NCBI GenBank assembly: GCA_039934355.1
Contig: JBDTMI010000004.1
Coordinates: 60,750 to 124,749 of the forward strand
DNA from: Gemmatimonadales bacterium
GTDB lineage: Bacteria > Gemmatimonadota > Gemmatimonadetes > Gemmatimonadales > GWC2-71-9
DNA: 64,000 bases
Direction of reading: 5' to 3'
Shown here: piece after piece, positions 1,601 to 52,016 of the stretch
Layout: each line of letters opens with the position of its first letter
Numbering within the stretch: the first letter of the stretch is position 1
Notes under the pieces: generated by a model
What the model was told of the DNA's origin: nothing
What the model saw: only the letters and a program-made list of their open reading frames with translations
Database searches by the model: none
Program-made: the position numbers and the translations under genes

Positions 1601-1623
1601 GGGCGGAAGAGCTCCTCGGACGG

Positions 1624-2532: not shown

Positions 2533-2619
2533 CCGGTCGTCCAGTGTGGGGTACATTGCCCCAGCGGCACCAATGCCTGGTTCAACCCGTTTCCTGTCTA
2601 CCCCATACCCCCTCCCCAG

Positions 2620-5304: not shown

Positions 5305-6212
5305 AGGAGGCATCCCTCACGCTGGTCGTCCTTGCCGCGGGTCTCGGCAGCCGTTACGGAGGGGTGAAGCAGCTGGCTCCGGTTGGCGAGGACGGCGCCA
5401 CGCTCATGGACTATGCGGTCCACGACGCGTGGCGTGCTGGTTTTCGCCGAGTGGTGTTCGTCATTCGCCCCGAGCTGGAGTCCGCTTTCGGGGCATTGAT
5501 CGGGGCGCGCTATCGGGGGCGGATCGAGGTCACCACCGCGCTTCAGCGTCTGGAGGAGGTACCCGCAGGCGTGCTGAGACGCCCCGAACGCACCCGACCA
5601 TGGGGTACGGCGCAGGCGGTCCTCGCCGCTCGGGCGCAGGTGCCGGGCGGATGTGCCGTGCTCAACGCGGATGATTTCTACGGACGCGACGCGCTCGATC
5701 AGGCGGCGCGCTTCCTCCGCGACCTCGATCCGGCCGGGACGCTACATGCGGTGATCGGATACCCGATGGCGCTGACCGCCAGCCCAGCCGGCGGGGTAAA
5801 TCGCGCCGTGCTCGTCACGGGACCGGAGGGATTCCTCGCGAGCATCGAGGAAGTGAAGGAGTTGCAGGAGGTCGCGGGAGGTCGCTTCCGCGGGATGGCG
5901 GGAGCAGAAGTACGGGAGATCGCGGGCGACGCGCTGGTGTCGATGAATCTGTGGGCCTTTGCGCCGACGGTCTTTGGCGCGCTCGACGAGGCCTTTCGCC
6001 GGTTCCTGGCGGGGCAACCCGACGAGCGGGAGGAATGCTACCTGCCCACGGTGGTGGCGGGCATGATCGATTCGGGTCGGGCCCGGGTGCGTGTGCTGCC
6101 CACCGCGAGCCGGTGGTGCGGCATCACCTACGCGGAGGACCGTCCGCGGGTGGAGGCTGAACTCCGGGAGCTGGTGCGGCGGGGCGAGTATCCCGCCCGG
6201 CTGTGGTCGTGA
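5301..6212 (+). CDS. Sugar-phosphate nucleotidyltransferase (NTP_transferase family)
   Basis: 303 aa. N-terminal LVVLAAGLGSRYGGVKQL (GxGxR pyrophosphorylase loop), WGTAQAV and NADDFYG motifs. GTGA overlap with the upstream stop. Confidence 0.8.
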   Translation: MKEASLTLVVLAAGLGSRYGGVKQLAPVGEDGATLMDYAVHDAWRAGFRRVVFVIRPELESAFGALIGARYRGRIEVTTALQRLEEVPAGVLRRPERTRPWGTAQAVLAARAQVPGGCAVLNADDFYGRDALDQAARFLRDLDPAGTLHAVIGYPMALTASPAGGVNRAVLVTGPEGFLASIEEVKELQEVAGGRFRGMAGAEVREIAGDALVSMNLWAFAPTVFGALDEAFRRFLAGQPDEREECYLPTVVAGMIDSGRARVRVLPTASRWCGITYAEDRPRVEAELRELVRRGEYPARLWS

Positions 6213-7309: not shown

Positions 7310-7313
7310 CCCG

Positions 7314-9089: not shown

Positions 9090-9261
9090 GGCAGAGCTCC
9101 CGAAGGGGTGGCCGTGCGGTGTGGTCTAGCGACTGAGCAGTGCGGGATGACGCGGCGCCGCGGGGGCGAGCGCATGGCACGCCGGGAAAGACAAAGGGAG
9201 TGTCCCAGGCACCCCGAAGCGACACTGGACATCGCTTAGCGCTGCTACCTCTCGGTCCTGA

Positions 9262-9374
9262 CGCGGTTCGCGCGCCGGCGACCTTCGGACCTGGGACGAG
9301 GGGAGTATAGCCCGCCCGCCCGGCCCGGAATAGGGGCAGCCACCGACCTCGGAGGGGCCGGTGCGCGCTCCGTC
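9262..9374 (+). ncRNA. ffs: Structured RNA candidate, possibly small SRP RNA (4.5S/ffs)
   Basis: A 14-bp closing helix (9265-9278 with 9358-9371; 12 pairs including one G-U, plus 2 mismatches) encloses GGCCCGGAAUAGGGGCAGCC, which resembles the SRP helix-8 motif GGUCCGGAAGGAAGCAGCC. It lies immediately upstream of dnaX, a position conserved for ffs in several phyla. The apical loop and arm lengths are atypical, so this is tentative. Confidence 0.4.
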
Positions 9375-9418
9375 AACCCGTCTAGCCCTCCAACCGCCGA
9401 GCCGACTAGCTTCCCGCC

Positions 9419-11083
9419 ATGGCCCTCGCCCTCGCCCGGAAATACCGCCCCCGCCGCTTCAGCGATCTGCTGGTGCAGGACCACGTGGCCAACGTGCTGC
9501 GCGGCGCCGTGGTGCGCAATCGGGTGGGACACGGGTACCTCCTGACCGGGCCGCGAGGCGTCGGCAAGACGACGGCGGCGCGCATCCTCGCCATGGCGCT
9601 CAACTGCGAACGCAAGGGTGTGGTGGCGCCGGCAGGGGAGCCGTGTGGGAGCTGCGACAGCTGCCAGCGGATCTGGACCGGTGTCGCCAACCTCGATGTG
9701 GTGGAGATCGACGCCGCCTCGAACCGCGGGGTCGACGATGCCCGCGACCTGCGCGAGCGGGCGATGTACGCCGCGTCGCAGGCCGGTCACCACAAGGTCT
9801 ACATCGTCGACGAAGCGCACATGCTGACCCGCGAGGCGTGGAACGCGCTGCTCAAAATTCTCGAAGAGCCGCCGCCGGGCGTGGTGTTCGTCTTCGCCAC
9901 CACGGAGCCGCAGAAGATCGCGCAGACCGCGGCACCGGTCCTGTCGCGCCTGCAGCGGTTCGACTTCCGTCGTATCGGCCCCGCGGCGATCCGGGACCGC
10001 CTCCGGGTCGTGCTGCACGAGGAGCAGATCGAGGCCGACGAAGACGCCCTCACGCTGATCGCCCGGCAGGCCGACGGCGGGATGCGCGATGCCCTGAGTG
10101 TGCTGGACCAGTGCCTGAGTTTCGGTGAGGGTCGTATCACCGCGGCGCGGGTCCGGGAAATCCTCGGCCTGGTGGATGACGAGATCTACACCGAGCTGCT
10201 CGCCATTCTGGCCGAGCGCCAGCCGGCCGGTGTCTTCACGCTGCTTGACCGACTGGACGAGGCAGGCGCGGATCTGATCGAGTTTTCCGGTGGCGTGGGC
10301 CAGATGCTTCGCGCGCTGTTGATGCTGCAGCTTGGGGCGACGCCCGAAGGGCTCACCGAGGCCATGCATCAGGCGCTCGCCGCTTTCCAGGACCGGCTCG
10401 CCGCCGGCGATCTGCTGCGGATGCTCAAACTGCTGGGGGAATCCGAGGCGACGATTCGCCGGAGCGCGACACCGCGCCTCGTCATCGAGACCCTGTTGCT
10501 GCGTTGGGTCCTCCTCGACCGGATGGTGGATCTGGCGGACCTGCTCGAGGGGACCAGTACTCCCCCATCCGCGGGGCCATCGCCCAGGACCACCGTAACG
10601 CCGGCACGGTCGAACCCCACGCCGCGCGCCACCGAGTCTCCGGCACATCCACCCGCCGAGTCGCCCGCCCGCCGCCCCGTGACCTCGATCGACTTCACGC
10701 TCGAGGCCCTGCGCGCGGCCTGGCCCGACCTGGTGCTCCTCGCTCGGGAGCAGAGCCGCTTCCTCGGGGAGGCGCTCAGCGCGGCGCGACCGGTGGCGGC
10801 AGCGCCACCCGCGCTGGCCCTTGAGGTACCGGATGGCAACCCGATGCACCTGGAATCGCTGGGTCGCCAGAAGGAGGCGGTGGAGCGGTTACTCGGACAG
10901 GCGGTCGGCGCTCCGGTGGTGCTGACCGTGACCGATCCCGGGGCGAAGAAGGAAGGCCCGTCTCCCCGCGGCCGACGACTGACCGAGGCGGAGACCCGCG
11001 CCGAACGGCTCAAGGTGCTCCGAACTCGTGATCCCGCCCTGGAGGCGGTGGCGGAGTCCCTGGACCTGGAAGTCATTGAATAG
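9419..11083 (+). CDS. dnaX: DNA polymerase III subunit gamma/tau
   Basis: 554 aa. Starts LARKYRPRRFSDLLVQDHV; Walker A GPRGVGKTT; Zn module CGSCDSCQ; YIVDEAHML box. Pro/Ala-rich linker and tau C-terminal region. Confidence 0.95.
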   Translation: MALALARKYRPRRFSDLLVQDHVANVLRGAVVRNRVGHGYLLTGPRGVGKTTAARILAMALNCERKGVVAPAGEPCGSCDSCQRIWTGVANLDVVEIDAASNRGVDDARDLRERAMYAASQAGHHKVYIVDEAHMLTREAWNALLKILEEPPPGVVFVFATTEPQKIAQTAAPVLSRLQRFDFRRIGPAAIRDRLRVVLHEEQIEADEDALTLIARQADGGMRDALSVLDQCLSFGEGRITAARVREILGLVDDEIYTELLAILAERQPAGVFTLLDRLDEAGADLIEFSGGVGQMLRALLMLQLGATPEGLTEAMHQALAAFQDRLAAGDLLRMLKLLGESEATIRRSATPRLVIETLLLRWVLLDRMVDLADLLEGTSTPPSAGPSPRTTVTPARSNPTPRATESPAHPPAESPARRPVTSIDFTLEALRAAWPDLVLLAREQSRFLGEALSAARPVAAAPPALALEVPDGNPMHLESLGRQKEAVERLLGQAVGAPVVLTVTDPGAKKEGPSPRGRRLTEAETRAERLKVLRTRDPALEAVAESLDLEVIE

Positions 11084-11160
11084 GGTCAGGCTTGCTTGCA
11101 TCCGACCCCACGGACCCCTAGTTTCTTCTTACTTTGCAGCGACTTAGCGATACTGAGCGT

Positions 11161-11469
11161 ATGGCAGATTGGCAGCAGCTCTATCAGTTGAGCCAGCAGA
11201 TGCAGGGGCGGCTTCACCAGCTCCAGCTCGATTTGGCCGACCACACCTATGACACGCAAGCCGGGGCCGGCATGGTCCGGGTGACGGTGGATGGGCAGGG
11301 AGTACTCCGGCGCCTGCACATCGATCCGGAATGCTTTGCGGGGCGGGATGCCGAGTTGCTGGCAGACCTGATCATCGGCGCGGTCGCCGAAGCGCAGCGA
11401 CGGGCCCACGAAGCGATGCAGCAGGAAGTTCGACGCGTGAGTCCCGCGACCCCGAACTTGCCGCTCTGA
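11161..11469 (+). CDS. ybaB: YbaB/EbfC family nucleoid-associated protein
   Basis: The ATG at 11161 gives 102 aa: MADWQQLYQLSQQMQGRL...AGMVRVTVDGQGVLRRLHIDPE...LADLIIGAVAEAQRRA. Conserved dnaX-ybaB-recR synteny. The ORF track's TTG at 11134 is an alternative start. Confidence 0.9.
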   Translation: MADWQQLYQLSQQMQGRLHQLQLDLADHTYDTQAGAGMVRVTVDGQGVLRRLHIDPECFAGRDAELLADLIIGAVAEAQRRAHEAMQQEVRRVSPATPNLPL

Positions 11470-11474
11470 AGATT

Positions 11475-12065
11475 GTGAGCGCAATCGAAGACCTGGTCAC
11501 CGAACTGGCCCGCTTGCCCGGCATTGGCCGGAAGACCGCCCAGCGACTGGCGTTCCACCTCGTGCAGCAACCCGGCGATCGCCTGACCCGGCTGGCCCGC
11601 GCGCTTGTCACCGTCGCAGAGCGGGTCCGGCCGTGTGATGAGTGCGGTCACCTCGCGGAGGGCGAGCGCTGCTCGATCTGTCTCGATCCGCGGCGTGATG
11701 CAGGACTCCTGTGTGTGGTGGAGGAGCCTGCTGCGGTCATGGTGCTGGAGCGCGCCGGCGAGTACCGCGGCCGCTATCATGTGCTGGGCGGTCGGATCGA
11801 TCCCCTGGGCGGCATTGGGCCGGAATCATTGCGGCTGGATCAACTCGTGGCCCGGGTCGATGCCGGCGGCGTGCGTGAGGTGATTCTGGCCACCAACCCC
11901 TCGATGGAAGGGGAGGTGACCGCCACCTACGTGCACCAGTTGCTCGTCGGCCGTGCGGTGAAAGTGACCCGGCTGGCCCGCGGGCTCCCCGTCGGAGGCG
12001 ATCTCGAATATGTCGACGGTGTGACGCTCGCCCTGGCGTTCACCTCCCGACAGGTGGTGGGCTGA
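11475..12065 (+). CDS. recR: Recombination protein RecR
   Basis: A GTG at 11475 in the frame of ORF 11331..12065 gives 196 aa. LARLPGIGRKTAQRLAFHL HhH motif, C4 zinc finger CDECGHL..CSIC, and Toprim segment VILATNPSMEGEVTA. Confidence 0.95.
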   Translation: MSAIEDLVTELARLPGIGRKTAQRLAFHLVQQPGDRLTRLARALVTVAERVRPCDECGHLAEGERCSICLDPRRDAGLLCVVEEPAAVMVLERAGEYRGRYHVLGGRIDPLGGIGPESLRLDQLVARVDAGGVREVILATNPSMEGEVTATYVHQLLVGRAVKVTRLARGLPVGGDLEYVDGVTLALAFTSRQVVG

Positions 12066-12347
12066 GTGCGGCGTCTGGCGGTGGTGTTCGGGGTCGCACT
12101 CGGGGCCGGGATCGGATGGACGCTGGCCCACGACCACATCGAGCGTCACCGGGAGAACCTGTTCAGTCCCCGTCCGTTCCGTCGCCTCGCCGCCCTGGGC
12201 GGGATCGATGCGGCGGGAGAACTCGAAAGTGTGCGTGTGCTGCACGATTACCTCCAGTGGGAGCGCCATCCGGTGCTCCGTCGCCGGGCCCGCGCGATCG
12301 TCCGCCGGCTTGAAGCGGCGCTGGGCTACACTCCACCGGGGACCTGA
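12066..12347 (+). CDS. Hypothetical small membrane-anchored protein
   Basis: 93 aa. GTG start directly abuts the recR stop, and its stop overlaps the mglB ATG by 1 nt. One N-terminal TM helix. G/C-ending codon bias consistent with coding. No family recognised. Confidence 0.5.
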   Translation: MRRLAVVFGVALGAGIGWTLAHDHIERHRENLFSPRPFRRLAALGGIDAAGELESVRVLHDYLQWERHPVLRRRARAIVRRLEAALGYTPPGT

Positions 12348-12838
12348 TGCCTGGGGCTTCCAGCTGGTCGTTCCGTGAAGAAGATTCCCAACGGATCACC
12401 GTGATTCTTTCGGCGTTCCTGCGGGAGTCCAACGCCCGCACGGCGATGATCGTGGACCGCGCCGGTCAGATGGTGTCGACCGTGGGCGAGGAGCCCACCT
12501 TCGATCCCACGGCGTTTGCCTCGCTCACCGCCGCCGATTTCAGTGCCAACGACCAGCTGGCGCGAATGATCGGCGAGCCGGAATTCGGCAGCCTTTTTCA
12601 TCAGGGCGAGAAGGAGTCGATGTACCTCGCCGATATCGCCCGGCGGGTGATCCTCGTCGTGCTGTTCGACAATCGCACGACCTTGGGCATGGTGAAGCTG
12701 CGGGTGCGGCAGACGGTGACGGACCTGCGCCATGTCTTCGAGGAGATGTTCACCCGGGAGCCGAGCGGCAAGCCGCCGGTGGAATCCGGGTTCATGGGTG
12801 AGGCGGAAGATGAAATTGACCGGCTGTTTGGCGCGTGA
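12347..12838 (+). CDS. mglB: Roadblock/LC7 domain protein, MglB-like GTPase-activating protein
   Basis: 163 aa. Close resemblance to Myxococcus MglB as remembered (VDRAGQMVS...ASLTAA...FHQGEKESMYL...VILVVLFDNRTTLGMVKLR). Sits directly upstream of mglA. Confidence 0.8.
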   Translation: MPGASSWSFREEDSQRITVILSAFLRESNARTAMIVDRAGQMVSTVGEEPTFDPTAFASLTAADFSANDQLARMIGEPEFGSLFHQGEKESMYLADIARRVILVVLFDNRTTLGMVKLRVRQTVTDLRHVFEEMFTREPSGKPPVESGFMGEAEDEIDRLFGA

Positions 12839-42000: not shown

Positions 42001-43014
42001 GATATCCGGAACTCGCAAGCGGCGCTGGAGGACGCCCGTCAGCGCACGGCGCTGGTGCTGGCCAACGTCGCCACCGCGGTCGTGGCGCTCGATCCCGAGG
42101 GACGGGTTCTCCTGGCCAATCCGCGCGCCGCCGAAGTGCTCGCGACTCCGTTGGTACCTGGGGACGCGCTCGCCCAGGTACTGGCCGGCGAGTGGTCACC
42201 CCTGCTGCGGGTCGTCGAGGATTTCCTCGGCCGGAGCGCGCCCGCGTATGCGGTGGAGGTCGAGGTCAACGGTCGCACGTATCGTCTCCAACTGGCCCGG
42301 CTCGGTGAGGCGCCGGGGGGCTCCGTGCTCGCGATCAACGACCTCACCAACGCCACCCAGGCGGCGCGGGTCCTGGCCTGGGGCGAGATGGCCCGACAGG
42401 TCGCCCACGAAATCAAGAATCCGCTCACCCCCATTCGGCTCGGCATCCAGCACCTGCAGCGCGTCAGGCGGGACCGGCCCGAGCAGCTGACCAGTCTGGT
42501 GGACGATACGGCGGTGCGCATCCTCGGTGAAATCGATCGACTGGACACGATCGCACGCGCCTTCAGTCGCTTCGGCATGCCGGGCGGCGAGGCGGTCCCG
42601 CTCGCCCGGCTCGATCTCGAGCCGGTGGCCCGGGAGGTGGCAGGCTTGTACGGCCTGACCGCAGAGGGGGTCGAGGTTGTTGTCGAGGTCGCGACGGGCG
42701 GCGTGCCACCGCAACTGGCGCGGCAGGACGAAGTGAAGGAAGTGCTGGGCAATCTGGTCGAAAATGCCCGCAGCGCCGAGGCACGCCGGATCGTGATACG
42801 ACTGCGCCCCGACGGATTCGATGTCGAGGACGATGGCACCGGCATTCCCGCCGCGCTCCTCCCGCGCATCTTCGAGCCGCGCTTCTCGACGACGACCAGC
42901 GGGGCGGGGCTCGGCCTGCCTATTGTCAGGCGACTGGTCGAGAGCTGGGGCGCGACGGTCGTGGTGGAGAGTGGCACGGGCCGCGGATCGGTGGTGCAGG
43001 TCCGGTGGCCGTGA
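39019..43014 (+). CDS. Very large multi-pass membrane sensor histidine kinase, NtrY-like transmitter (HAMP-PAS-HisKA-HATPase)
   Basis: 1331 aa from the ATG at 39019 (the ORF track TTG at 38977 is an alternative). About 14 hydrophobic helices and two long extracytoplasmic segments. HAMP then PAS. H-box AHEIKNPLTPIRLGIQHL (NtrY type). N/G boxes NLVENA, DDGTGIP, GAGLGLPI. Confidence 0.9.
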   Translation: MIAPSVNAARRAAWLVMAATVVAAEWLRQPAPWWGIVAVGLTIIGLLLARRAGLRVWLVAVATGAVASAIVLGQSHMGRVAAEWPVERERRVTEVFRRLSRELHATLLQVDNLARSALPLADADRTVAFSHLDRELPRDGPEMAVAILDPTGMPWAWAGRQRLVPEPEGDSLAARFTRFYAVLESRRRAPSGRVVVATVLVWADSAVPRPDRSLAARFGAEAGVQVEVFPPGGAPPSRDVFDYSEPTTAGDRLLFSLLPVAPEEAAVQTEVNNAAAAGVALTLVLLLAVGLVTAQASLERFLLLATLLWAVLRAPLGAAVGFDDLFSAGTFFRGSFRPFSSSAGNLLVTGSVLLILGVWLWGRRGPLPRWGAAIGVLLLLATPYLISDLGRGISPPVTGVPPDLWITWQVSLTMVTAAIVLLAGALVWRALPLTGGPGWIGVGAACGIAAAAAGLLLWEPRAGWPEWYPLLWFPALLLVARPGPRWAVLLATSIVAGSAAALVTWGAELDGRLLAAQRDLARLGDVEDPLAVPLLERLGDDAVQGIEPTAASTLYLLWRASDLGGQEFPVRLALWNRDGVRLDELALDSVDVPTSLLSALVLSLDSTQPRTVVPLLRVPGRHYVLLQHLPSGRILTVVAGPRSRLLAPGRLARLLRRPDAGPPLYEMSLSPPFESGRVRPVAAAWERSGTRLRIDRLLTLPGGNRHVYVVVGQGAFSLLLVRGALLTALDLVVLALLWWVTVLRPGSLRRSVEVRRKARSFQVRLALTLAAFFIVPAAGFTVWGLGRLTDEVDHTRDLLISAALRDAVLTAGGLLREPGDYLVQGLGELSNRLEADLLLYSGGRLIATSAPILEDLSLVEPLLDARVFQRLALGDELELTRQATTYVAPVRVGYRVAQAGPPGGVGILATPQLAYDWARTQDQRDLAAVLLLALLTGIGASFLGAQWAARALSRPVADLRRSAAAIGQGLPLPAVAMPPVEFEQVFVAFQRMAADIRNSQAALEDARQRTALVLANVATAVVALDPEGRVLLANPRAAEVLATPLVPGDALAQVLAGEWSPLLRVVEDFLGRSAPAYAVEVEVNGRTYRLQLARLGEAPGGSVLAINDLTNATQAARVLAWGEMARQVAHEIKNPLTPIRLGIQHLQRVRRDRPEQLTSLVDDTAVRILGEIDRLDTIARAFSRFGMPGGEAVPLARLDLEPVAREVAGLYGLTAEGVEVVVEVATGGVPPQLARQDEVKEVLGNLVENARSAEARRIVIRLRPDGFDVEDDGTGIPAALLPRIFEPRFSTTTSGAGLGLPIVRRLVESWGATVVVESGTGRGSVVQVRWP

Positions 43015-43227
43015 TCGGGACGGCGGGAGTGTTCGCCGCGGCCGACCGCGGTGCCTTCGGTTGCGAAATCCTTCGTCGGCGTGCATCGTACCGGTCGGGT
43101 TCCGATGGAACTTCGGGAGCTTTTTAGCGGTTCCAGGGATGGGTGTTGGCGGTCGGCCCGAGTCATGCTACTTCGGTAGAACGCGCAGAGCCGGTCACTC
43201 ACGCGCACCTCCCAAGGACGATCTGTC

Positions 43228-43689
43228 ATGAATCCTGAGCCCATCCCGGTGAGTTTGCTGGCGGTCCACGACCTCCTCAGGGAAACCCTTGCCACTGCAA
43301 GGGATAACAACGGCCCGTTCCAATACGGAGTCGCGGTCTTTCCGCGCACCGGACGGTTCGGGGCTCCGGTATTCGGGATCGCGACCAGTGGCGGTGAGTC
43401 CACAGTGCTGACCTACCGGATGCTACAGTCGCTGGTGGAGCTTCCGGTGTACCTGTCCGGCCGGGTTCCCGCCACCATCCGGGAAGGTCTCAGTTACGGA
43501 CCGCCGCGGGTGATTCCCGTCGCCCTGCTCGACCAGCCGGTTCTGCGGGTGGGTTTCACCTGCTGCATCGGTGCGAGCCGGGACGATCTCGATCGGACCC
43601 AGCCGCTGGAAACCAGCGTCTTCGCCGGCGACCTCACGGCACCGCTGATCCTGCTGCTCGACGCTCGTCCCGACGGCTGGCCGCAGTAA
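43228..43689 (+). CDS. Hypothetical protein (orphan ORF, lower GC3 than its neighbours)
   Basis: 153 aa ORF with an ATG start. Followed by a hairpin plus T5 tract. Noticeably more A/T-ending codons than flanking genes. No family recognised. Confidence 0.5.
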   Translation: MNPEPIPVSLLAVHDLLRETLATARDNNGPFQYGVAVFPRTGRFGAPVFGIATSGGESTVLTYRMLQSLVELPVYLSGRVPATIREGLSYGPPRVIPVALLDQPVLRVGFTCCIGASRDDLDRTQPLETSVFAGDLTAPLILLLDARPDGWPQ

Positions 43690-43701
43690 CGACCGCCCGC
43701 C

Positions 43702-43737
43702 ACCGCTCGCGGCGCCGAGCGTCGTCCGCGGTTTTTC
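43702..43737 (+). terminator. Candidate intrinsic terminator after the orphan ORF
   Basis: ACCGC (43702-43706) pairs with GCGGT (43728-43732), immediately followed by TTTTT, a rare T-run in this sequence. The stem is short and the loop long, so it is weak. Confidence 0.35.
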
Positions 43738-43818
43738 TCCGCCTTCCTGCTTCAATACGGTAACCGATCCACGCCTCCGAACTGCGATGATGCTCCGGCC
43801 TCTTCCGGAGAACCACGC

Positions 43819-45372
43819 ATGCTCGCCTGTGTTCACGCCGCCACTCTGTTCGGGATCGACGCTTGCCCGGTCGCCGTTGAAGTCGACCTGAGCCCGGGCC
43901 TGCCCGGTTTCGCCACGGTCGGGCTGGCACAGGGTGCCGTGAAGGAGAGTCGAGAGCGGGTGACTGCGGCGTTGTCGAACAGCGGATTTCAGCTTCCGCT
44001 CAAGCGCATCACGGTGAACCTGGCCCCGGCGGACCTCCGGAAGGAGGGTTCCGGCTTTGACCTGCCGATCGCCGTCGCGCTGCTGGAGGCGAGTGGGCAG
44101 TTGCCGGAGGGAGCGGCGGCGGGACTGCTGGTGCTGGGGGAGCTCGGCCTCGAGGGAGACCTGCGTCCGGTGCGTGGCGCCCTGTCGGTCGCGCTCCGCG
44201 CCCGGGCTGAGGGGCTACGTGGCGTCATCGTCCCGGCAGCCAACGCGAATGAGGCCGCGGTCGTCGCCGGCCTCGAGGTCATCGGCGCGCGCTCGCTGCG
44301 GGATGTGGCGAGGCACCTCTCGGGGGAGTCGCCCCTTCCGGTCACACCCCACGATCCCGCGGCCTTCGCGGCGCTGCCGGTGCCGGATGCGGTGGATTTC
44401 GCCGACGTCCGCGGGCAACCGGCGGCCAAACGCGCGCTCGAAGTCGCGGCGGCGGGAGGTCACAATCTCCTCCTCATCGGGCCCCCGGGCGCGGGGAAGA
44501 CGATGCTCGCCCGGCGCCTGCCGACCATTCTGCCCGCACTGTCGGTTGAGGAAGCGATCGACACGACCCGCATCCACAGCGTCGCCGGCCTGCTCCCCGC
44601 CGGCCGAGCCCTGCTCACCGCCCGCCCCTTCCGAGCGCCGCACCATACCATCAGCGATGCCGGTCTCATTGGGGGCGGCGCGACGCCGCGGCCGGGGGAG
44701 GTGAGCCTGGCCCATGGCGGGGTGCTTTTTCTTGATGAGTTGCCGGAATTCCGTCGCAACGTGCTCGAGGTCCTGCGCCAGCCGCTCGAGGATGGGGTCG
44801 TCACCCTGAGCCGCGCCGCGATGAGCCTTACCTACCCGGCGCAGTTCACACTCATCGCCGCGATGAATCCCTGTCCCTGCGGCTTCGCGGGCGACGCACG
44901 GCGTTCCTGTACCTGCGAGCCTGCCCTGGTCGAGCGCTACCTGAGCCGGCTGTCGGGACCGCTGCTCGACCGGATCGACATCCAGCTCCGGGTGCCGGCG
45001 GTCCTCGCGACCGAGTTGACCGGGGACCAGCTCGAAGAGCCGAGTCAGGCGATCCGGCTGCGGGTCGAGGGGGCCCGCGCCCGGCAGCGGCGTCGCTTCC
45101 CGCCCGGCACCGGGGTCGCGAGCAATGCCTGCCTCGCCCCGCGCGAGCTGCGTCGCTACTGCCGCCCCGATCCGGCCGCCGAAGAGTTGTTGCGCGCCGC
45201 ACTGACCCGGCTGGGTCTTTCGGCCCGGGCCTACCACCGGGTTCTCAAGGTGGCACGGACGATCGCGGATCTGGCGGGAGAGGAGACGGTGGGCACGGCG
45301 CACATCAGTGAGGCCATTCAGTACCGGACCCTGGACCGCGCGGCGTTCGGGCGGGCGCGGGCGGCGGGGTAG
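43819..45372 (+). CDS. comM: YifB/ComM family Mg-chelatase-like AAA+ ATPase
   Basis: 517 aa. N-terminal Lon-like domain (GIDACPVAVEVDLSPGLPGFATVGL...ESRERV). Walker A GPPGAGKT, LFLDELPEF Walker B, C-terminal SARAYHRVLKVARTIADL. Confidence 0.95.
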   Translation: MLACVHAATLFGIDACPVAVEVDLSPGLPGFATVGLAQGAVKESRERVTAALSNSGFQLPLKRITVNLAPADLRKEGSGFDLPIAVALLEASGQLPEGAAAGLLVLGELGLEGDLRPVRGALSVALRARAEGLRGVIVPAANANEAAVVAGLEVIGARSLRDVARHLSGESPLPVTPHDPAAFAALPVPDAVDFADVRGQPAAKRALEVAAAGGHNLLLIGPPGAGKTMLARRLPTILPALSVEEAIDTTRIHSVAGLLPAGRALLTARPFRAPHHTISDAGLIGGGATPRPGEVSLAHGGVLFLDELPEFRRNVLEVLRQPLEDGVVTLSRAAMSLTYPAQFTLIAAMNPCPCGFAGDARRSCTCEPALVERYLSRLSGPLLDRIDIQLRVPAVLATELTGDQLEEPSQAIRLRVEGARARQRRRFPPGTGVASNACLAPRELRRYCRPDPAAEELLRAALTRLGLSARAYHRVLKVARTIADLAGEETVGTAHISEAIQYRTLDRAAFGRARAAG

Positions 45373-45509
45373 GGGCGAAGCTATGAGCCGGGTCGGGAGA
45401 TCAAGGCGGTTGCTGCTCCCTCACCCGCTTCGTCCCGGTGCCCACCGAGTCGGAGATGGCATCCAGATCATCACCCAGTCACGACCCGGCTGCAACTGCT
45501 TTCGGAGCG

Positions 45510-45656
45510 ATTCACACGGCGAATGCCGACCTGCACAGCGCTAACGGCGGTGTGCACCGTGCTAACAGCGGTCCGCACATCGCTAACGGCCGCCTGCACA
45601 CTGCTAACGGCAGTCTTCACAGCACTCCCCGCGCCTTCCACACCCCTTTCCTCTGG
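45510..45656. repeat. Tandem array of about 7 x 21-bp direct repeats (core NNGCAC-NNN-GCTAAC(G/A)GC-NNN)
   Basis: Read directly. Four well-conserved units lie at 45531-45614, flanked by degenerate units that retain the CAC. The period is exactly 21 bp. Confidence 0.9.
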
Positions 45657-45847
45657 CTCGTCACCGGCGCCTAACACTCCGCATCATCTGGCACGCCGCT
45701 CGCGTTGCCTCCCCTCCGCCAGGCTCGGTGTGGGCCGGTCCTGGTCGTCGCGCCGCCGCTCCCCGAAGCGCTCGGCACCGTTGGTCCCCCGTGGTTCTCG
45801 GACCGCTTATACGGTGTCGTCGTATGCAATGCTATCTTCGTATCGGT

Positions 45848-46387
45848 CTCCACGCCGGGCCGATGGATTACACGCCGGGCATCTTCGACATTCTGAGGCA
45901 GCGGGCCGGCGGACCCCCCGCCCGGCCGCAAGATTCACGGGTCCGCGCCGCGCTGGCCAAGCAGCTCACACTGTATGTCGTGCTCGACTCACCACTGCAG
46001 ATGGCGGCGGACTTGCCCGAAAACGACGAGGGGCAGCCGGTGTTCCAGTTCATCCGCGACGTTGCGGTGGATTGGGACACGACCCGCGTGCTCGACGGCC
46101 GGATCGGCAACTACGTGGCGGTCGCACGCCGGAAGCGCGGGGGCCAGTCCTGGTTCGTGGGTGCCATCACGGATGGGCAGGGCCGCACCCTCGACGCCCC
46201 GCTTTCGTTCCTGACGCCGGGCCGGAAGTATGTCGCAGAGATCTACGCCGACGGCCCGAAGGCCAACTGGCTGGACAACCCATCGCCCGTCACCATCACC
46301 CGACGGCCGGTGACCGCCGCGACTCGGCTGCGCGTCGTGCTGGCGCCGGGAGGCGGGCAGGCCATCCGGATCCACCCCGCGAGATGA
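45848..46387 (+). pseudogene. Glycoside hydrolase family 97 remnant (C-terminal ~175 residues only; N-terminal and catalytic regions missing)
   Basis: HAGPMDYTPG..., QLTLYVVLDSPLQMAADLPEN, FIRDVAVDWDTTRVLDGRIGNYVAVARRKRGGQSWFVGAITD and LRVVLAPGGGQAIRI match the C-terminal part of SusB-like GH97 enzymes (about 650-740 aa) as remembered. Similarity stops abruptly upstream of about 45848. Confidence 0.7.
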
Positions 46388-46399
46388 TTCTGGCTGCGC

Positions 46400-48340
46400 A
46401 TGGATGAACTGAGGGCGCTCCGCGCGCTCGCCAGGACGATGGGGGTCCACACCCGTTACACCGACGGGTTGGGCAAACGCGTCATTGTGGCGCCTGAGAC
46501 GCTGGTGCGGGTCTGCGACGCGCTGGGCGCTCCCGTTGCGCGACCGGCCGATGCCGCAGACGCGCGGCGTGCCTACAGCGCGGGCCGGAGGCGGGGGCAG
46601 CTTCCACCGGTTGCTCTCGCCTGGGATGGGAGCCTCCCACCGCTCGCCGTGCCCGCCTCCGGCCCGGTCGACGGACGGCTTCAGCTCGCTGACGGCGAGC
46701 TCGTCATACTCGAGCGCGTTGGAGCGGAGCTGCAGCTCAATCGCCGTCTGCCCGCCGGGTACCACCGCCTGACGGTCGAGGCCCATGGACGGGCTCAGAC
46801 GTGCACGGTCATCGCTGCCCCGGTACATGCGTGGCGCCGGCCCGGCGCGCATCGGAGTTGGGGAGTCGGGACCCACCTCGCGGCTCTCCGCTCAGCGCGC
46901 AGCCGCTCCCTGGGCGACCTCCGGGATCTCCAGTTGCTTTGTCGCTGGGTGCGTCAGCGCGGTGGGGACCTGGTGACCGCCCTGCCGCTCCTTCCCACTT
47001 TCAATACAGAGTGGCCGGAACCGAGTCCGTACTCCCCGGTGAGCCGGCTCTTCTGGTCCGAGTTGATCCTCGATCTGGGCGAGCACCATCACCCGTCGCC
47101 TGGACCCGCGATGCTGGACGTGACCGCAGCGGATGCCGAGGTCCGCCTGGCGCTGGCCGGGTATCCGGTCCCGGATGCATCGCTGCTGGACGAGGAGCTG
47201 CGTCGTTACGCACGGTTCCGCGGCGCGCAGGCCCGGCTCGGCAGGAACTGGCGGGATTGGCCCTCGAAGGCGCGCGCCGGACTGCTCAGAGCCGACGACG
47301 TGGACGCCGAGGTTGAGCGATTCCACCTCGTGGCCCAGACGATGGCGCGGGGGCAGCTGAACGACCTCCGGGCGCACCTGGAGCACGATGGAATGCGCCT
47401 GGGCCTGGACCTCGCGGTGGGCGTGCATCCGGATGGATACGACCCATGGTCGCGTCAGGGACTGTTCGGCGAAGGGATGTCGGTCGGCGCCCCACCCGAC
47501 CAGGGCTTTCCGAGCGGGCAGGACTGGGGCTTCTCGCCGGTGCTGCCGGAAGCGTCTCGCCGCGAGGGCCACCGGTACCTGGCGGCGTCCATCGCCCACC
47601 AGGCCGGTCTTGCCGGTGTGCTTCGGGTCGACCACGTCATGGCCTGGAGCCGTCTCTACTGGATCCCGCACGGCCTCGGGCTGCATGAGGGCACGTACGT
47701 CTCGTATCCCACCGACGAGCTCTTTGCCATCCTGTCGCTGGAGTCGAATCTCCACCGGTGCGAAGTCGTGGGGGAGAACTTGGGCACGGTGCCTCCCGAG
47801 ATCTTCGAGGCGCTGCCACGTCACCGGATCTGGGGGATGTATCTCGCGATGTTCCAGGCGTCCGCCGGACCTAACGTCGCCCCCCCAACGGCCGCGGATA
47901 TGGCACTCGTGGGCACCCACGACACCCCGACCGTTGCGGGTTGGCTCGCCGGCAATGACATCGCCGACCGGGTGCGTTATGGCCTCCTGGCCCCGCCGGC
48001 GGTCCACGCCGTCGCCGAAGAACGGTTGAGGGCCACGGGGTGGCTCGCAGCCCAACTGGGCGCCAGTGTGGGTGACCCTCGCGACTTTCTGAGTCGATTG
48101 CTGGAATGGCTCGGTCAGTCCGACAGCCCGCTCGTGGTGGCCTGGCTCGAGGACCTGTGGCTCGAACCCGTTGCGGTCAACCTTCCCGGGACGCCGTCGT
48201 CGGTGCGTCCCAACTGGCAGCGTCCGATGCGACTGCTGCTGGATGAAATCTTTGCCAACCCCGATGTGGACGAGTTGCTTCGTCGCCTCCAGCGGGCTCG
48301 AACTTCCAACGTGAGCGACCTCCCGCCCGTCACCCCTTGA
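46400..48340 (+). CDS. malQ: 4-alpha-glucanotransferase (amylomaltase, GH77)
   Basis: 646 aa. N-terminal extension then the GH77 core: GDLRDLQLL..., LPLLPT, SPYSPVSRLFW, LGLDLAVGVHPDGYDPW, LRVDHVMAW, VVGENLGTVPPEI, VGTHDTPT. Confidence 0.9.
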   Translation: MDELRALRALARTMGVHTRYTDGLGKRVIVAPETLVRVCDALGAPVARPADAADARRAYSAGRRRGQLPPVALAWDGSLPPLAVPASGPVDGRLQLADGELVILERVGAELQLNRRLPAGYHRLTVEAHGRAQTCTVIAAPVHAWRRPGAHRSWGVGTHLAALRSARSRSLGDLRDLQLLCRWVRQRGGDLVTALPLLPTFNTEWPEPSPYSPVSRLFWSELILDLGEHHHPSPGPAMLDVTAADAEVRLALAGYPVPDASLLDEELRRYARFRGAQARLGRNWRDWPSKARAGLLRADDVDAEVERFHLVAQTMARGQLNDLRAHLEHDGMRLGLDLAVGVHPDGYDPWSRQGLFGEGMSVGAPPDQGFPSGQDWGFSPVLPEASRREGHRYLAASIAHQAGLAGVLRVDHVMAWSRLYWIPHGLGLHEGTYVSYPTDELFAILSLESNLHRCEVVGENLGTVPPEIFEALPRHRIWGMYLAMFQASAGPNVAPPTAADMALVGTHDTPTVAGWLAGNDIADRVRYGLLAPPAVHAVAEERLRATGWLAAQLGASVGDPRDFLSRLLEWLGQSDSPLVVAWLEDLWLEPVAVNLPGTPSSVRPNWQRPMRLLLDEIFANPDVDELLRRLQRARTSNVSDLPPVTP

Positions 48341-49001
48341 GGTACCGGTCGATCATGGGATGACACGCTGCAACCGCTCGAAGAAGTTGTCGAGGGATTC
48401 CTGCTCGGCGTCCAGCCGGCCCTCCGCTCGCCACTTCTCGATGAGGGTCGGCGGCAGATTCACCGGCTCGTCCCGCTCCGTCAGTACCATCCGGGAGCGT
48501 GGGGACGAGCTTGCAATCGACGGTGAAGCGTTCGACCTCGTACCACTCGGCGAACCGGGATCGCCTCTGGTTGGCGAGCAGATCCTTCCACGCCCAGAAA
48601 CTGGTTCCGGTATGGTTCCACGAGTAGTCGATGATGATGTGCATCCCGCGCCGGTGGACTTCGCGTACCAGGGCAAGGAAGAGGCTGTCCGCGGCGGTCC
48701 ACTTCCACGTGGATGGGTCCGCGGGGCTCTCGGCGGCGATGGTCGCTTCGTCGCGGCGCGGATCGGGGCCGAAGTTGCGATCCGGCGAGTAGCCCGCGAT
48801 GTCGTGCGCGGTCGGATCGTTGGTGCTGTCGCCGTTGCGGAATCGTTCGACGAAGATCTGGTACCAGATGACGTCTGCCGACCAGGCGGGGACCGCGAGA
48901 GTCGGGGTGGCGTCGGGCCGGGCTACTGGCGCTTCCCGTGCGCATCCCGATGCGAGACCCAGTGCGAGCACCATCGCGCCTCGGCGGGCAACGTTGGTCA
49001 T
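48330..49001 (-). pseudogene. GH13 alpha-amylase-family lipoprotein remnant (internal gap, frame change and missing C-terminal two-thirds)
   Basis: Lipobox MTNVARRGAMVLALGLASGC. VIWYQIFVERFRNGDSTNDP and HRRGMHIIIDYSWNHTG (GH13 region I) are present, but the segment expected between them is absent. Homology ends after FAEWYEVERF. A second frame (48353..48676) ends in a different coding-like tail. Confidence 0.6.
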
Positions 49002-49063
49002 TACGGCCTCCGTTGGATCGGAAAGGTCAGGGCGTTGTCGGGCCGTGAGGCGCCAGCAGGCGC

Positions 49064-49678
49064 TCACGCAAGAATCCGGTCGATCAGTGCCAGCTCTTCG
49101 GCTGCAAACTCAAGATTCCGTGTGGCGCCGACGCAGTCCTCGATCTGGCTGACGCGGCTCGCGCCGATCAGGGCGCTGGTGACAATCGGATGGCGCAGCA
49201 CCCACGCCAGCGCCATCTGCGCCAGGGTCTGCCCGCGCGATTGGGCGACATCATCAGGTCGGTGGGAATAGAGGATGTCAACGTATGGCAGTCCCAGCCG
49301 TTTCAGCGATTGATCGAGTGAGGCCAGGAGGCTCTTCCTCGAGCCCCTTTCACCGTAAGGCCCGGGCCACATGGCGTACCCCGCCTTGGTGGTCACGATC
49401 ATCTCGTCGCGCCACCGTCCGAGGTCTTCACCCAGGATGCGGCCGAAGGATTCCTCCGCCGATCCTTCGGGCGGACCGTAATTGTTGGCCAGGTCGAAAT
49501 GGGTGATGCCGAGGTCGAAGGCCCGGCAGACCATTGCGCGGGCGTTGCAGTGGGAATCCTGCGCCCCAAAGTTGTGCCAGTGGCCCAGCGAGATCCGCGG
49601 GAGTGCGACGCCCGAATGACCGCACCGGCGAAAAAAGTCTGGCCGGTTGTACCGGGCTGCATCGGGCGCGTGCGTCAT
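49064..49678 (-). pseudogene. Aldo/keto reductase (YghZ/Tas-like) with a large in-frame internal deletion
   Basis: 204 aa from the ATG at 49678. Collinear with E. coli YghZ as remembered up to ...VDILYSHRPDD, then jumps directly to AQSRGQTLAQMALAWVL...LIGASR...LALIDRIL, the C-terminal helices. About 140 residues of the TIM barrel are missing around 49245-49255. Confidence 0.7.
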
Positions 49679-49774
49679 TCCTGTGTCACTCCCTCGGCTG
49701 AGGGGACAACCTCGGCTTGGACGAGGCCGAATGTGCAGCAACCGGTCACAGCGCCGCAAGGGAGTTGGAGACCG

Positions 49775-50584
49775 CTACCGTGGAGTCCAGGTCGGCTGAC
49801 CGGTGAACAATCCGTGCACCACGCCGACCTGATACGCGATAAGTATCCCGAACGCCAGGCTGATGACACCGGCGGAGAGCCGGAGCGCCGCGCCAATCCG
49901 CGTGGAGCGGGTCCCGGCGTAGACGAACGGTACGGCGATGGCCGCGGTGATCACCATCATCCCGGCGATGGTACCGAGTCCGAACACCAGCAGGTAGAAC
50001 ACTCCCCAGCGTGGCTCGGCGATCGTGGCGAGGACGAGCAGGGCCACCGCCGCGGAGCCGGCGAGGCCGTGCACGACTCCGACCACGAGCGGGCGCACCC
50101 CGCCATAGAGCGTAACCCCGACGAGGTGCCGGTCCAGCCAGCCCACCGGAGTCCGGTCCGGGTCATGGGGGTGACGCTCGGGATCGTGCCCGTGGGCATG
50201 GTCATGGATATAGTCGCCGTGACTGTGCGGATGGGCGTGCGTTGACAGGTGGTCGGACGGCTTCCTGCCACGGTACTCCGCGATCAGCCGCCAGAGCCCG
50301 GTCAGGTTCATCAGACCGAGTCCAATCAGCATCACCCCCACGAAGAACTCCATGGAAAGCCCGACTCGGGGCGGGATGACCCAATGGCCAAGGATGATGC
50401 CACCCCCCACGACGAGAATGGTGAGGGTGTGACCCAGACCCCAGAGGGCCCCGATCCACGCGGCACTTCCGGCCCGGCGATGTCGAGACACGATGGTGGT
50501 GATCGCGATGACATGATCCGGATCGGTCGCGTGGCGCATGCCCAGGAAGAATCCCAGCGCGAGGATGGCGAAGGTATCGGTCAT
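49775..50584 (-). CDS. Nickel/cobalt transporter, NicO/RcnA-like, with histidine-rich loop
   Basis: 269 aa from the ATG at 50584. HX4DH-type signature GMRHATDPDHV in TM2. Central loop HLSTHAHPHSHGDYIHDHAHGHDPERHPHDPD. About 6 TM helices. Confidence 0.7.
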   Translation of the reverse strand: MTDTFAILALGFFLGMRHATDPDHVIAITTIVSRHRRAGSAAWIGALWGLGHTLTILVVGGGIILGHWVIPPRVGLSMEFFVGVMLIGLGLMNLTGLWRLIAEYRGRKPSDHLSTHAHPHSHGDYIHDHAHGHDPERHPHDPDRTPVGWLDRHLVGVTLYGGVRPLVVGVVHGLAGSAAVALLVLATIAEPRWGVFYLLVFGLGTIAGMMVITAAIAVPFVYAGTRSTRIGAALRLSAGVISLAFGILIAYQVGVVHGLFTGQPTWTPR

Positions 50585-50600
50585 CGTGTTGCCCTCGTCG

Positions 50601-51173
50601 TCAACCGCGGTCCGAGAACTCGAATGGCTCGCCACGTCCATCGCCGCTCCGGCGACCGCCCATGCGCGGGCGACGCTCAGACGATGACCCTTCCTGTTCT
50701 CGGGTGTCGCGCGGACCCCGGCGTCGCTCGACAAACGATTCGATCGCCTCGACTCCCAGGAGGACGGCAAGCGTTACCAGTGTAATCACAACCGCGGCGG
50801 CGAAGTGCCCGATGCCGATGAGGCTGCCGATCGCGGCCAGTACCCAGATGACCGCCGCAGTCGTGACACCCAGGAGGCGGCCCTCCCGGGTCAGGATCAC
50901 TCCCGCCCCGAGGAAACCAATGCCGGTGACGACCTGCCCAAGCACCCGGGTGGCATCGCTCCGATCAGGGGCGGTCGTCACGCCGAGGGCGACAAAGAGG
51001 GAGGTCCCCAGGCAGATCAGAATGCTGGTACGCACACCGGCGGCCTTGCCCCGAATCTGCCGTTCGAGGCCAATGGTGCCGCCGCAGAGGAGGGCAACGC
51101 CCAGATGGAACCAAAAGACGGGAGTCTCGGGCGAAAGGGAGTCAGGCGGCATGGTGAACGCCTCTCTTTCCAT
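50601..51173 (-). CDS. MgtC/SapB family membrane protein
   Basis: 190 aa. LLCGGTIGLERQIRGKAAGVRTSILICLG and VVTGIGFLGAGVIL motifs. Start ambiguous (51173 or 51152). Confidence 0.85.
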   Translation of the reverse strand: MEREAFTMPPDSLSPETPVFWFHLGVALLCGGTIGLERQIRGKAAGVRTSILICLGTSLFVALGVTTAPDRSDATRVLGQVVTGIGFLGAGVILTREGRLLGVTTAAVIWVLAAIGSLIGIGHFAAAVVITLVTLAVLLGVEAIESFVERRRGPRDTREQEGSSSERRPRMGGRRSGDGRGEPFEFSDRG

Positions 51174-51334
51174 GAGAGTGTGAATCGAGGGTCGGCCCCG
51201 AGCAAGATACGGTGTGTCGCATAGTGAGGCACACCGGGGGAGGTGGCCGCCTTCCGACCGCCGACCTCACCCCTACGCTGGCCGTGCCTGCCCTCTCAGC
51301 GTAACTTTCGAGCATCCAATTCCCTGAGCGCATA

Positions 51335-51949
51335 CTGTACCCAGTCGCCCGCACTCTACCCCTCGCGGGCCTTTTCCTGCTCGCATGTACTCCGCTCGGC
51401 GCATGGGTCTACGACGACCCGTCCTTCCAGCTCACCCGGGTAGAGGCGCGCCACCCCGGCGCCTCGGGGCTGGAAGCGGATTCGGTGAACCTGGTGTTCC
51501 TCGCCTGCAACCGGAACGACTACGACCTGCAGTTGCGGCGGGTCTCCGCCCGGCTCGCCGTCACCGGTCGCGCCGCGAGCCCGCTGGGCCGCTCGGACAA
51601 CTACACCCTGCCCACCCGCACCATGAGCGAAATCATGGTAACCGTCTCGCTGGCCGACTCGGCGATCGCCGCCGACCAGGAGCATCGTCGTTTCGAGCTG
51701 CTGGGCGAGACCACAGTGACCACGCCAGGTGGAGACCGGGTCGTGGCGTGGCAGCAGCGCGGGCAGGTGTGGAAGCGCGGCGACTCGCTCCACTGGGTCG
51801 GGGAGCAGGGCGTGGCCTGTCGGCCAGGGCTGTCACAGCTCCCCACCTATTTCGCACCGCTACCCAAGATCGGTCCACTGGTCAAGGAGCCGCTGCCAAG
51901 CATGATGAACCCTGACTCGAACCCGCCCACACGGCCTTCAAGACCCTGA
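51335..51949 (+). CDS. LEA_2 (LEA14/NDR1-HIN1-like) domain lipoprotein; start codon non-canonical or lost
   Basis: The frame is open from 51305. It encodes ..YPVARTLPLAGLFLLAC|TPLGAWVYDDPSFQLTRVEAR.. (lipobox LLAC) upstream of the first canonical start (GTG at 51485). The only start-like codons before the signal peptide are CTG 51335, ATA 51332 and ATC 51314. The body (NLVFLACNRNDYDLQLRRVSARLAVTGR...) resembles LEA_2. Confidence 0.55.
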   Translation: MYPVARTLPLAGLFLLACTPLGAWVYDDPSFQLTRVEARHPGASGLEADSVNLVFLACNRNDYDLQLRRVSARLAVTGRAASPLGRSDNYTLPTRTMSEIMVTVSLADSAIAADQEHRRFELLGETTVTTPGGDRVVAWQQRGQVWKRGDSLHWVGEQGVACRPGLSQLPTYFAPLPKIGPLVKEPLPSMMNPDSNPPTRPSRP

Positions 51950-52016
51950 ACCGGGAGTATTGAGCAGCGAAATCCTGCGCTGAAGCTGTCCGCGAGTGCG
52001 CTCGCTCGGCCCGCCC

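Follow-up and report, generated by a model that had tools for sequence, protein, structure and literature searches.

Probable young pseudogene remnants around a retained malQ gene in an alpha-glucan locus of an uncultured Gemmatimonadales bacterium

Here, we describe truncated genes around an intact malQ gene in a 64,000-nucleotide (nt) window, by which we mean the whole stretch of DNA analyzed, from the Gemmatimonadales bacterium assembly GCA_039934355.1 (contig JBDTMI010000004.1, positions 60,750 to 124,749 of the forward strand). The window is rich in guanine plus cytosine (GC; 64-74% in 400-nt windows), and the region of interest is bounded by comM (43819-45372) and nicO-mgtC (49775-51173). 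Between them lie pieces of a GH97 gene, a major facilitator superfamily (MFS) transporter gene, two GH13 genes, and an aldo-keto reductase (AKR) gene, which are very probably young, lineage-specific pseudogene remnants, left by an ordinary, known kind of decay around a selectively retained malQ.

Related loci were sampled with a MalQ scan from the window (one genome per species), giving 80 loci, all from uncultured Gemmatimonadales/Gemmatimonadota and with MalQ protein identities of 64-82%. Residues were numbered on a reference orthologous locus, L007, whose intact order is GH2-GH97(672)-MalQ-MFS(529)-GH13a(565,+)-GH13b(634,-), with lengths in amino acids (aa); GH13a is the MalS-like alpha-amylase (L007 12026-13723) and GH13b the lipoprotein GH13 (L007 13929-15833). 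Uniqueness of proteins was judged against a collection of 5.8 billion database proteins, which takes in the same sequencing runs as the window. The features of the region, including the GH13 open reading frame (ORF), are as follows.

46400..48340, plus strand: malQ, intact GH77 4-alpha-glucanotransferase gene (646 aa), spared by all losses
45848..46387, plus strand: GH97 remnant, the last ~70 catalytic-barrel residues and the whole C-terminal domain (residues 500-672 of 672)
48355..48379, plus strand: MFS sugar-transporter stub, ~8 codons from the gene start (alignment with L013, L014, and L007)
48330..49067, minus strand: GH13 ORF, a mosaic of GH13b 1-80, GH13b 162-247, and GH13a ~204-255, with a frameshift
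48783..49001, minus strand: GH13b N-terminal fragment (residues ~1-80), with lipoprotein signal (LGLASGC) and barrel start WYQIFVERFRNGD; ATG at 49001
48525..48782, minus strand: GH13b fragment (residues 162-247), with conserved region I (DYSWNHTG)
48380..48524, minus strand: GH13a fragment (residues ~204-255 of 565), inverted, fused to GH13b, with a 1-nt insertion near 48488
49255..49678, minus strand: AKR N-terminal piece, up to YSHRPD (PDB 3erp 21-167; Pfam Aldo_ket_red 1-112 of 291)
49064..49254, minus strand: AKR C-terminal piece, DVAQSRGQTLAQMALAW to the stop codon (PDB 3erp 285-349), in frame past a 378-nt deletion
45373..45847, no strand: non-coding spacer (475 nt) from comM to the GH97 breakpoint, the sequence to which GH97 is joined on its left
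45531..45623, no strand: tandem array of a 21-base-pair (bp) unit (4.4 copies), inside the spacer

The malQ product has the same length (646 aa) as those of relatives L013, L014, and L016, is colinear with relatives over residues 1-646, and has full-length matches in the 80 loci; Pfam (Glyco_hydro_77, E = 1.8e-68, and MalQ_N) confirmed a full-length GH77. The order GH97-MalQ-MFS-GH13a(+)-GH13b(-), with full-length genes, is found in many of the 80 loci. The fractions retained in the window are 26% of GH97, 26% of GH13b, 9% of GH13a, 1.5% of MFS, and 62% of AKR, and the combination of a partial GH97, no MFS, 9% of GH13a, and 26% of GH13b is unique among loci with enough flank. Measured against orthologues, the loss of length is large and confined to one lineage.

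GH97 homology sets in sharply at 45848 and ends at the stop codon (46385-46387), inside an ORF spanning 45728-46387; nucleotide homology to 12 relatives begins at 45848-45857 (blastn). The remnant aligns with residues 500-672 of the 672-aa L007 orthologue (80%, tblastn), with residues 483-658 of PDB 5hqb (669 residues), and with residues 552-724 of SusB (PDB 2d73), where nothing aligns before residue 552. Pfam found only positions 205-274 of 275 of Glyco_hydro_97, so the catalytic domain is incomplete, and positions 1-96 of 97 of GH97_C (E = 2e-31), so the C-terminal domain is present. GH97_N, the N-terminal beta-sandwich, had no match in the ORF, and L007 GH97 residues 1-499 had none anywhere in the window. 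The catalytic and calcium-binding glutamates of SusB are located before the stretch kept here; because it begins past them, the GH97 piece is predicted to be unable to act as an enzyme. Its frame is still open and could start from an ATG at 45863; the malQ start follows its stop by only 12 nt.

To the left of this breakpoint, the spacer matched none of the related loci by blastn or tblastn, has flat codon-position GC in all six frames (0.59-0.71), and has no gene called in contigs from the Logan assemblies; together, comM and the spacer have no counterpart beside GH97 in any relative. The tandem array (Tandem Repeats Finder: period 21, 72% matches, score 102) ends 225 nt upstream of the GH97 breakpoint, and its degenerate 21-bp pattern has 4 matches in the window, all in the array, against 0.16 expected by chance.

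In relatives, an MFS gene of 514-529 aa follows malQ directly. In the window, its stub has TGA as the third codon; homology of L013 and L014 to the window stops at 48377, and the junction between the MFS stub and the inverted GH13a piece sits in a common CGCTC (48375-48379). The GH13 ORF that follows is not colinear with any single GH13 gene. Its N-terminal fragment (54% to L007 GH13b 2-80, tblastn) begins at 49001, the start used in a 223-aa gene call, and includes what we take to be a lipobox, judged from the sequence and the PROSITE PS51257 pattern. A gap of 243-249 nt (81-83 codons) follows cgacatcgcggg in the nucleotide alignment, an in-frame deletion at ~48782/48783. The next fragment (77% to L007 GH13b, tblastn) has limits of exactly 48525-48782 in 13 relatives (blastn), and GH13b homology ends at 48525, past WYEVERF, at residue 247 of 634.

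Beyond that point, 48380-48524 matched ~20 relatives at 68-77% nucleotide identity, always on the opposite strand (blastn), and all relatives with GH13a have the homologous segment on the same strand as malQ. L007 GH13a residues 218-253 are 56% identical to the fragment (tblastn), the window TVDCKLVPTLPD pairing with TVDCTLVATLPD, and a single extra base near 48488 in the alignment switches the frame. Pfam Alpha-amylase covers positions 69-120 of 446 only, which is region I (24.8 bits), and PDB alignments of the ORF cover only chain residues 136-164 and 232-287 of 589. Regions II-IV, which hold the catalytic Asp-Glu-Asp, are absent, and with them the set of regions I-IV on a complete (beta/alpha)8 barrel. 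The hybrid junction (48524/48525) is in frame and lies exactly 30 residues past the region-I histidine in both paralogues (by count on the alignments, from H218 to residue 248 in GH13b and from H174 to T204 in GH13a). The two proteins are ~24% identical, with nothing alignable at the junction or beyond region I; given this and at most 1-2 nt of microhomology, we rejected homologous recombination between GH13a and GH13b as a simple source of the hybrid.

The AKR ORF (49064-49759, minus strand) has a 204-aa product. Nucleotide alignment with full-length L085 and L086 places an in-frame deletion of exactly 378 nt (126 codons) at 49254|49255, with tga as the only microhomology; the 126 residues of full-length P0002 that are missing correspond to ~168-284 of 3erp. 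The N-terminal block aligns well with YghZ-type enzymes (DLANNYG, TTKAG, and YSHRPD are kept) and presumably holds the residues of the catalytic Asp-Tyr-Lys-His tetrad, as it does in those enzymes. Against NCBIfam NF007388 (L-glyceraldehyde 3-phosphate reductase), the stub matches in its N-terminal part (1-142 of 346) and reaches a total score of 267.8 (cut-off, 448), compared with 427.5 and end-to-end coverage for a full-length relative. In place of a full-length (alpha/beta)8 barrel there are two matches around a 126-residue gap; most cofactor-binding loops of AKRs are in the region that is gone, and the product, with its middle third missing, is predicted to be unable to close the barrel. 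In no relative examined does the AKR gene stand beside the glucan genes: it lies ~35 kb from the glucan locus on the same contig in the source genome of L081, and the full-length genes of L085 and L086 have different, variable neighbors.

This anatomy agrees in outline with the original prediction, made from the letters alone, which had an intact malQ between decayed genes, GH97 similarity running from 45848 to the normal C-terminus with ~500 N-terminal aa gone (~499 residues by our count), a GH13 gene that keeps its lipoprotein signal and region I without the segment between them or anything beyond WYEVERF, and a 21-bp array at the edge of the patch. The frame switch that it placed at ~48500 is also there, although the supposedly unrelated tail is the inverted GH13a piece; the AKR loss is in frame as foreseen, but at 126 codons is smaller than the ~140 aa expected near 49250.

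None of the three short proteins has a counterpart of the same architecture in a second species among the 5.8 billion proteins, which runs counter to the idea, raised earlier as a way in which the prediction might fail, that such forms are conserved in many genomes. Among the 120 AKR matches listed, only the window protein is short; the other 119 are 329-349 aa long, and full-length relatives share 72-85% identity with the parts that remain. The sole full-coverage match of the GH13 ORF is itself, and the next-best match of the GH97 stub is 82% identical, with no intact near-identical copy recorded. Nonetheless, the National Center for Biotechnology Information (NCBI) annotation of the metagenome-assembled genome (MAG) calls the 204-aa P0001 an "aldo/keto reductase" and the 223-aa P0241 an "alpha-amylase family glycosyl hydrolase," with no pseudogene flag.

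A conserved family of short GH97 proteins was considered in view of many 173- to 174-aa "GH97_C-only" entries and rejected, as these are mostly on ~1-kb contigs and probably cut at contig ends. One such 173-aa call in a contig interior (L174) is a disrupted full-length gene with GH97 residues 2-420 just upstream, and the short GH97 of L175 comes from a frameshifted long-read assembly. In L175 (contig_74232, 4461-8091), GH97 is followed directly by MFS with no malQ between, and GH97 and GH13a are broken into several frames, which may be real pseudogenes or long-read indel errors. L174 (CRIT18-1 scaffold_1150, 1-12522) has SusD-like genes, TonB-dependent receptor (SusC-like) genes, and another GH13 beside GH97-malQ-MFS-GH2, a layout of Bacteroidota-style polysaccharide utilization, and its glucan genes are ~70-80% identical in protein to those of Gemmatimonadales.

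The junctions recur across assemblies. Within 45001-50000, the parts covered by Logan contigs from SRR26386572, -599, -622, and -621 agree with the window at 99.84-100% identity with no gaps, and four further runs carry the AKR and GH13 junctions. By exact-protein look-up, the same MalQ and 204-aa AKR occur on contigs of eight separately assembled runs and on a 139,652-nt MAG contig at NCBI. The AKR, GH13, and GH97 junctions are crossed by 8, 7, and 3 contigs, respectively. Two haplotypes, L003 (2 single-nucleotide polymorphisms [SNPs]) and L004 (6 SNPs), have junctions identical to those of the window, and the other contigs are identical to it. All eight SNPs in ~21 kb of L003 and L004 fall in the GH97 and GH13b stubs, and three change amino acids: six of them, in L004, lie within 46 nt of the GH97 stub (46284-46330), 80-125 nt from the contig end, and two, in L003, within 15 nt of the GH13b stub (48681-48695). 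Relaxed constraint, a recombination tract, or a contig-end effect could each account for such clustering. In all Logan contigs covering malQ, the gene is 100% identical, with no variation between haplotypes.

At the divergence of these loci, synonymous sites are probably saturated. In the 28 taxa with both genes, a regression of GH97 C-terminal amino-acid divergence on that of MalQ gave the stub the largest positive residual (+0.066); its mean p-distance to relatives is 0.218, as against 0.155 in intact pairs that are equally distant in MalQ. Compared with its nearest full-length relatives, the AKR stub is more distant from outgroups by 0.5-2.9%, a small but consistent excess. With the confinement of SNPs to the stubs, these excesses point to relaxed constraint after disruption, whereas malQ stays under purifying selection and, as far as gene content tells, would be the sole working gene of the former locus. 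Third-position GC in genes and remnants alike is 0.77-0.86, which is gene-like; since the stubs keep this signal beside a flat spacer, the events would be recent, and the frames would still be open for the same reason.

Other relatives have lost parts of the same locus. L013, L014, and L016 (JANMYS010000105.1, JAWXBX010000389.1, and JANOFA010000108.1) share ~90% nucleotide identity and an unchanged 646-aa malQ. GH97 is intact in L013, is down to three patches (residues 393-418, 463-518, and 652-672) in L014, which is ~90-92% identical to L013 in nucleotides, and is reduced to its last 25 codons in L016, which has no MFS and no GH13. L062 (JALYPB010000287.1, 1546-2363), whose MalQ is the most similar to that of the window (82% identity), has no MFS, GH13a, or GH13b and no detectable remnants of them; ~0.8 kb past malQ comes the homologue of the gene found on the far side of GH13b in L007. 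The breakpoints in L014, L016, and L062 differ from those of the window, so these were independent loss events, and in relatives with losses malQ and at least ~70-85 nt upstream of it were always spared. The right-hand neighbors of L016 are those of the window (a 154-aa gene, sua5, arfB, clpP, and nadE), and L081 has nicO ~2 kb beyond GH13b, so the right flank is ancestral and the right-side decay happened in place. A short ORF beside malQ in L016 (3652-4002; MGKKRRAFTPELKQEAVRQV...) gave no Pfam hit; it may resemble the N-terminus of an IS3-family transposase OrfA, which would suggest activity of insertion sequences at the locus, but we make no claim on this.

Comparison with orthologous loci, proposed earlier as a check, thus yielded relatives with the full locus and breakpoints mapped by blastn and tblastn. 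The erosion of an alpha-glucan locus by several deletions, two of them in frame, which the original prediction had proposed, is borne out by that full locus, the sharp nucleotide breakpoints, and the uniqueness of the window state. It needs amending in that one event would be an inversion or template switch, the AKR gene stands outside the glucan locus, and the MFS gene and a second GH13 gene have been lost as well.

From these comparisons we infer the order and number of events and the loss of function of the stubs. The ancestor would have had a GH97 alpha-glucosidase, MalQ, an MFS transporter, a same-strand MalS-like GH13a, and a convergent lipoprotein GH13b. A rearrangement would have removed the first ~499 GH97 codons and all of the ancestral upstream region, joining codon 500 to non-coding spacer downstream of comM. 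GH13b (to codon 247) would have been fused to GH13a (from codon ~204), most simply by an inversion between the convergent paralogues, and a deletion at the 5-nt microhomology CGCTC would then have taken out everything from MFS codon 8 to GH13a codon ~255. The hybrid was presumably damaged further by the 81-83-codon internal deletion and the 1-nt insertion, and the neighboring YghZ-like AKR, outside the glucan locus in relatives, would have lost its 126 codons in frame. Microhomology at the junctions is tga in AKR, ~2 nt for the deletion inside GH13b, no more than 1-2 nt where GH13b meets GH13a, and CGCTC at MFS/GH13a; a search for direct or inverted repeats or a mobile element at the junctions found only short chance-level matches. 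Short junction homology of this sort is the signature of illegitimate, microhomology-mediated events.

Several points weigh against this account. All stubs are open and three junctions are in frame (~1/27 by chance if the junctions are independent and unbiased), so some retained function or selection on translation is possible. Deletion lengths that are multiples of three (3n) may also reflect mechanistic bias: Danneels et al. (2018; PMC6054270) report that 3n-length deletions are over-represented among the small deletions of bacterial pseudogenes, and attribute this to end-joining at microhomologies. The AKR stub shows only a small excess of divergence. As for the SNPs, they form two clusters only, one of them near a contig end, and are weak evidence. 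The polarity of events rests on parsimony across MAGs at ~64-82% MalQ identity rather than on a resolved phylogeny, and, with a non-syntenic left flank, the GH97 truncation may be a translocation or inversion breakpoint and not a deletion.

Four other explanations can be set against decay in steps. Assembly collapse, which the original prediction had offered as its alternative, would mean that merged strains or chimeric joins made the junctions and that the real genome has full-length genes. The source is indeed a MAG, and L004, ending in the GH97 stub with six SNPs near its end, reveals strain variation; yet the eight separately assembled runs, two SNP haplotypes among them, and the NCBI MAG contig agree with the window, each junction recurs in several contigs (8 for AKR, 7 for GH13, and 3 for GH97), no flanking repeats are there to collapse, and a collection covering the same runs has no near-identical full-length GH97, GH13b, or AKR protein, which leaves an artefact scarcely credible. 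It is highly improbable, too, that selection keeps the short ORFs as functional proteins or that a stub has taken on a new role; the products would then be a GH97 C-terminal domain that stands alone and is coupled to MalQ, a small lipoprotein, and a reductase built on half a barrel. Open frames, the ATG at 45863 and the 12-nt spacing to malQ, three in-frame junctions, the kept YghZ-type block of AKR with YSHRPD, and the ordinary enzyme names in the NCBI annotation would all fit such proteins, but no second species among the 5.8 billion proteins has these architectures, the GH97 stub evolves faster than all 27 intact relatives, and L014 and L016 eroded the same GH97 region further yet kept malQ. 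Moreover, the GH13 hybrid is frameshifted, family scores are far under curated cut-offs, and polymorphism, including amino-acid changes, is concentrated in the stubs.

The block 45848-49067 might instead be a fragment of a glucan locus inserted by illegitimate recombination or transfer, in which case an intact locus may exist elsewhere. This would suit the neighborhood, as comM, AKR, and mgtC stand beside malQ in 0 of the 80 related loci, L081 is the only one of them with nicO close by, and in L147 comM lies ~3 kb from arfB-nadE with glucan genes absent between. It sits badly with the right neighbors of L016 and the nicO of L081, by which the right flank is ancestral to the clade, with stub identities to relatives (72-82% in nucleotides) that equal those of malQ, and with uniform GC; the window has no second malQ, GH97, or GH13, the protein collection has no near-identical intact copy, and the GH13b internal deletion and the AKR deletion would still be unaccounted for, so we hold insertion to be very doubtful. 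Better placed, though still unlikely, is a single replication-based event in which serial microhomology-mediated template switching made most or all of the junctions together. There are five junctions in 3.4 kb, one fragment is inverted, the microhomologies are short (CGCTC, tga, and 1-2 nt), the decayed AKR adjoins the glucan genes although its function has no relation to theirs, and all junctions are common to all haplotypes. Against this, L013, L014, and L016 show stepwise, differing losses, so piecemeal erosion does occur here; the 1-nt frameshift is a separate small mutation; and microhomology of 1-5 nt is typical of ordinary illegitimate deletions too. To our knowledge, multi-junction template-switching events are rarely documented in bacteria.

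With stepwise decay retained as the preferred explanation, the exactly in-register GH13 hybrid junction is the only point left without explanation. For random breakpoints, such a join is roughly a 1-in-1,000 coincidence, less extreme if a tolerance of a few residues is allowed. Speculatively, the cell may still have depended on both genes when the inversion happened, and only an exchange in register would have survived. GH13b::GH13a might then be the relic of a once-functional hybrid enzyme, unless the whole five-junction patch came from one template-switching event; we think it rather unlikely that either holds. As a relic, it would go back to an in-register inversion that gave a reciprocal pair of full-length hybrid amylases; these would have been tolerated for as long as the locus was used, with decay setting in only later, a course of events that we regard as possible but doubtful.

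The window has parallels in known systems. Bacterial pseudogenes are removed rapidly by deletion (Kuo and Ochman, 2010; PMC2916853), and, as outlined in that work and in PMC6054270, inactivated non-essential genes are lost piecemeal with little junction homology, leaving young, lineage-specific remnants beside a retained useful gene, as in the window. The 3n bias described in PMC6054270 matches the 378-nt and 243-249-nt in-frame losses, with the difference that the bias is reported there for small deletions, whereas those of the window run to hundreds of bases; the pseudogenes in that account come from genomes under reductive evolution, whereas the host here is uncultured and presumably free-living. 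Unlike published pseudogene decay, one step here would be an inversion or template switch fusing two paralogues. The fusion of the head of one gene to the tail of another, with the donor piece inverted, is like that of hybrid genes between inverted paralogues, but here the paralogues are ~24% identical, and an inversion can be proposed only from what is left, since deletion has removed the reciprocal product and the remainder of the hybrid. The ancestral Gemmatimonadales locus is like starch/maltodextrin loci (SusB-type GH97, GH13, transporter, and MalQ), GH13b being neopullulanase/maltodextrin-glucosidase-like; in the window, only MalQ survives, and the transporter is 8 codons. The retained parts of the AKR align with AKR14A1/Escherichia coli YghZ-type enzymes (PDB 3n6q, 4aub, and 3erp; E = 1e-73 to 3e-79), from which the window protein differs in being without 126 central residues.

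Metagenome contigs scanned for the comM neighborhood gave relatives at no more than 68% identity, which shared no downstream genes except arfB and nadE (L147). In L147 (JGI10216J12902_100479902, 1-5184), a more distant relative, an interval of ~3 kb that holds no glucan genes separates comM from arfB and nadE; in the window, arfB and nadE are 8-9 kb from comM. The stretch between comM and arfB/nadE may be a variable island. Rfam at permissive E-values had no match in 43000-52000, and sigma-70 promoter and intrinsic-terminator scans of 45200-49900 found no sites, although the consensus models say little for this phylum.

In all, this is textbook-type bacterial gene decay in an uncultured soil-type lineage, with unusually legible junctions; it is no new kind of system and leaves current understanding unchanged. 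As the stubs are deposited as ordinary enzymes, there is a practical lesson for annotation: Pfam-based counts would assign GH97, GH13, and AKR functions to a genome that almost certainly does not have them, and MAG-derived inventories of carbohydrate-active enzymes would overstate its capacity for starch use. With L014, L016, and L062, the window forms a small natural series in which a glucan-uptake locus has been dismantled repeatedly and independently in Gemmatimonadales, and it gives a few well-resolved deletion junctions (1-5 nt of microhomology, 3n lengths) from a presumably free-living bacterium. That malQ is always kept while the uptake locus is lost suggests that MalQ serves internal glycogen/maltodextrin turnover rather than scavenging.

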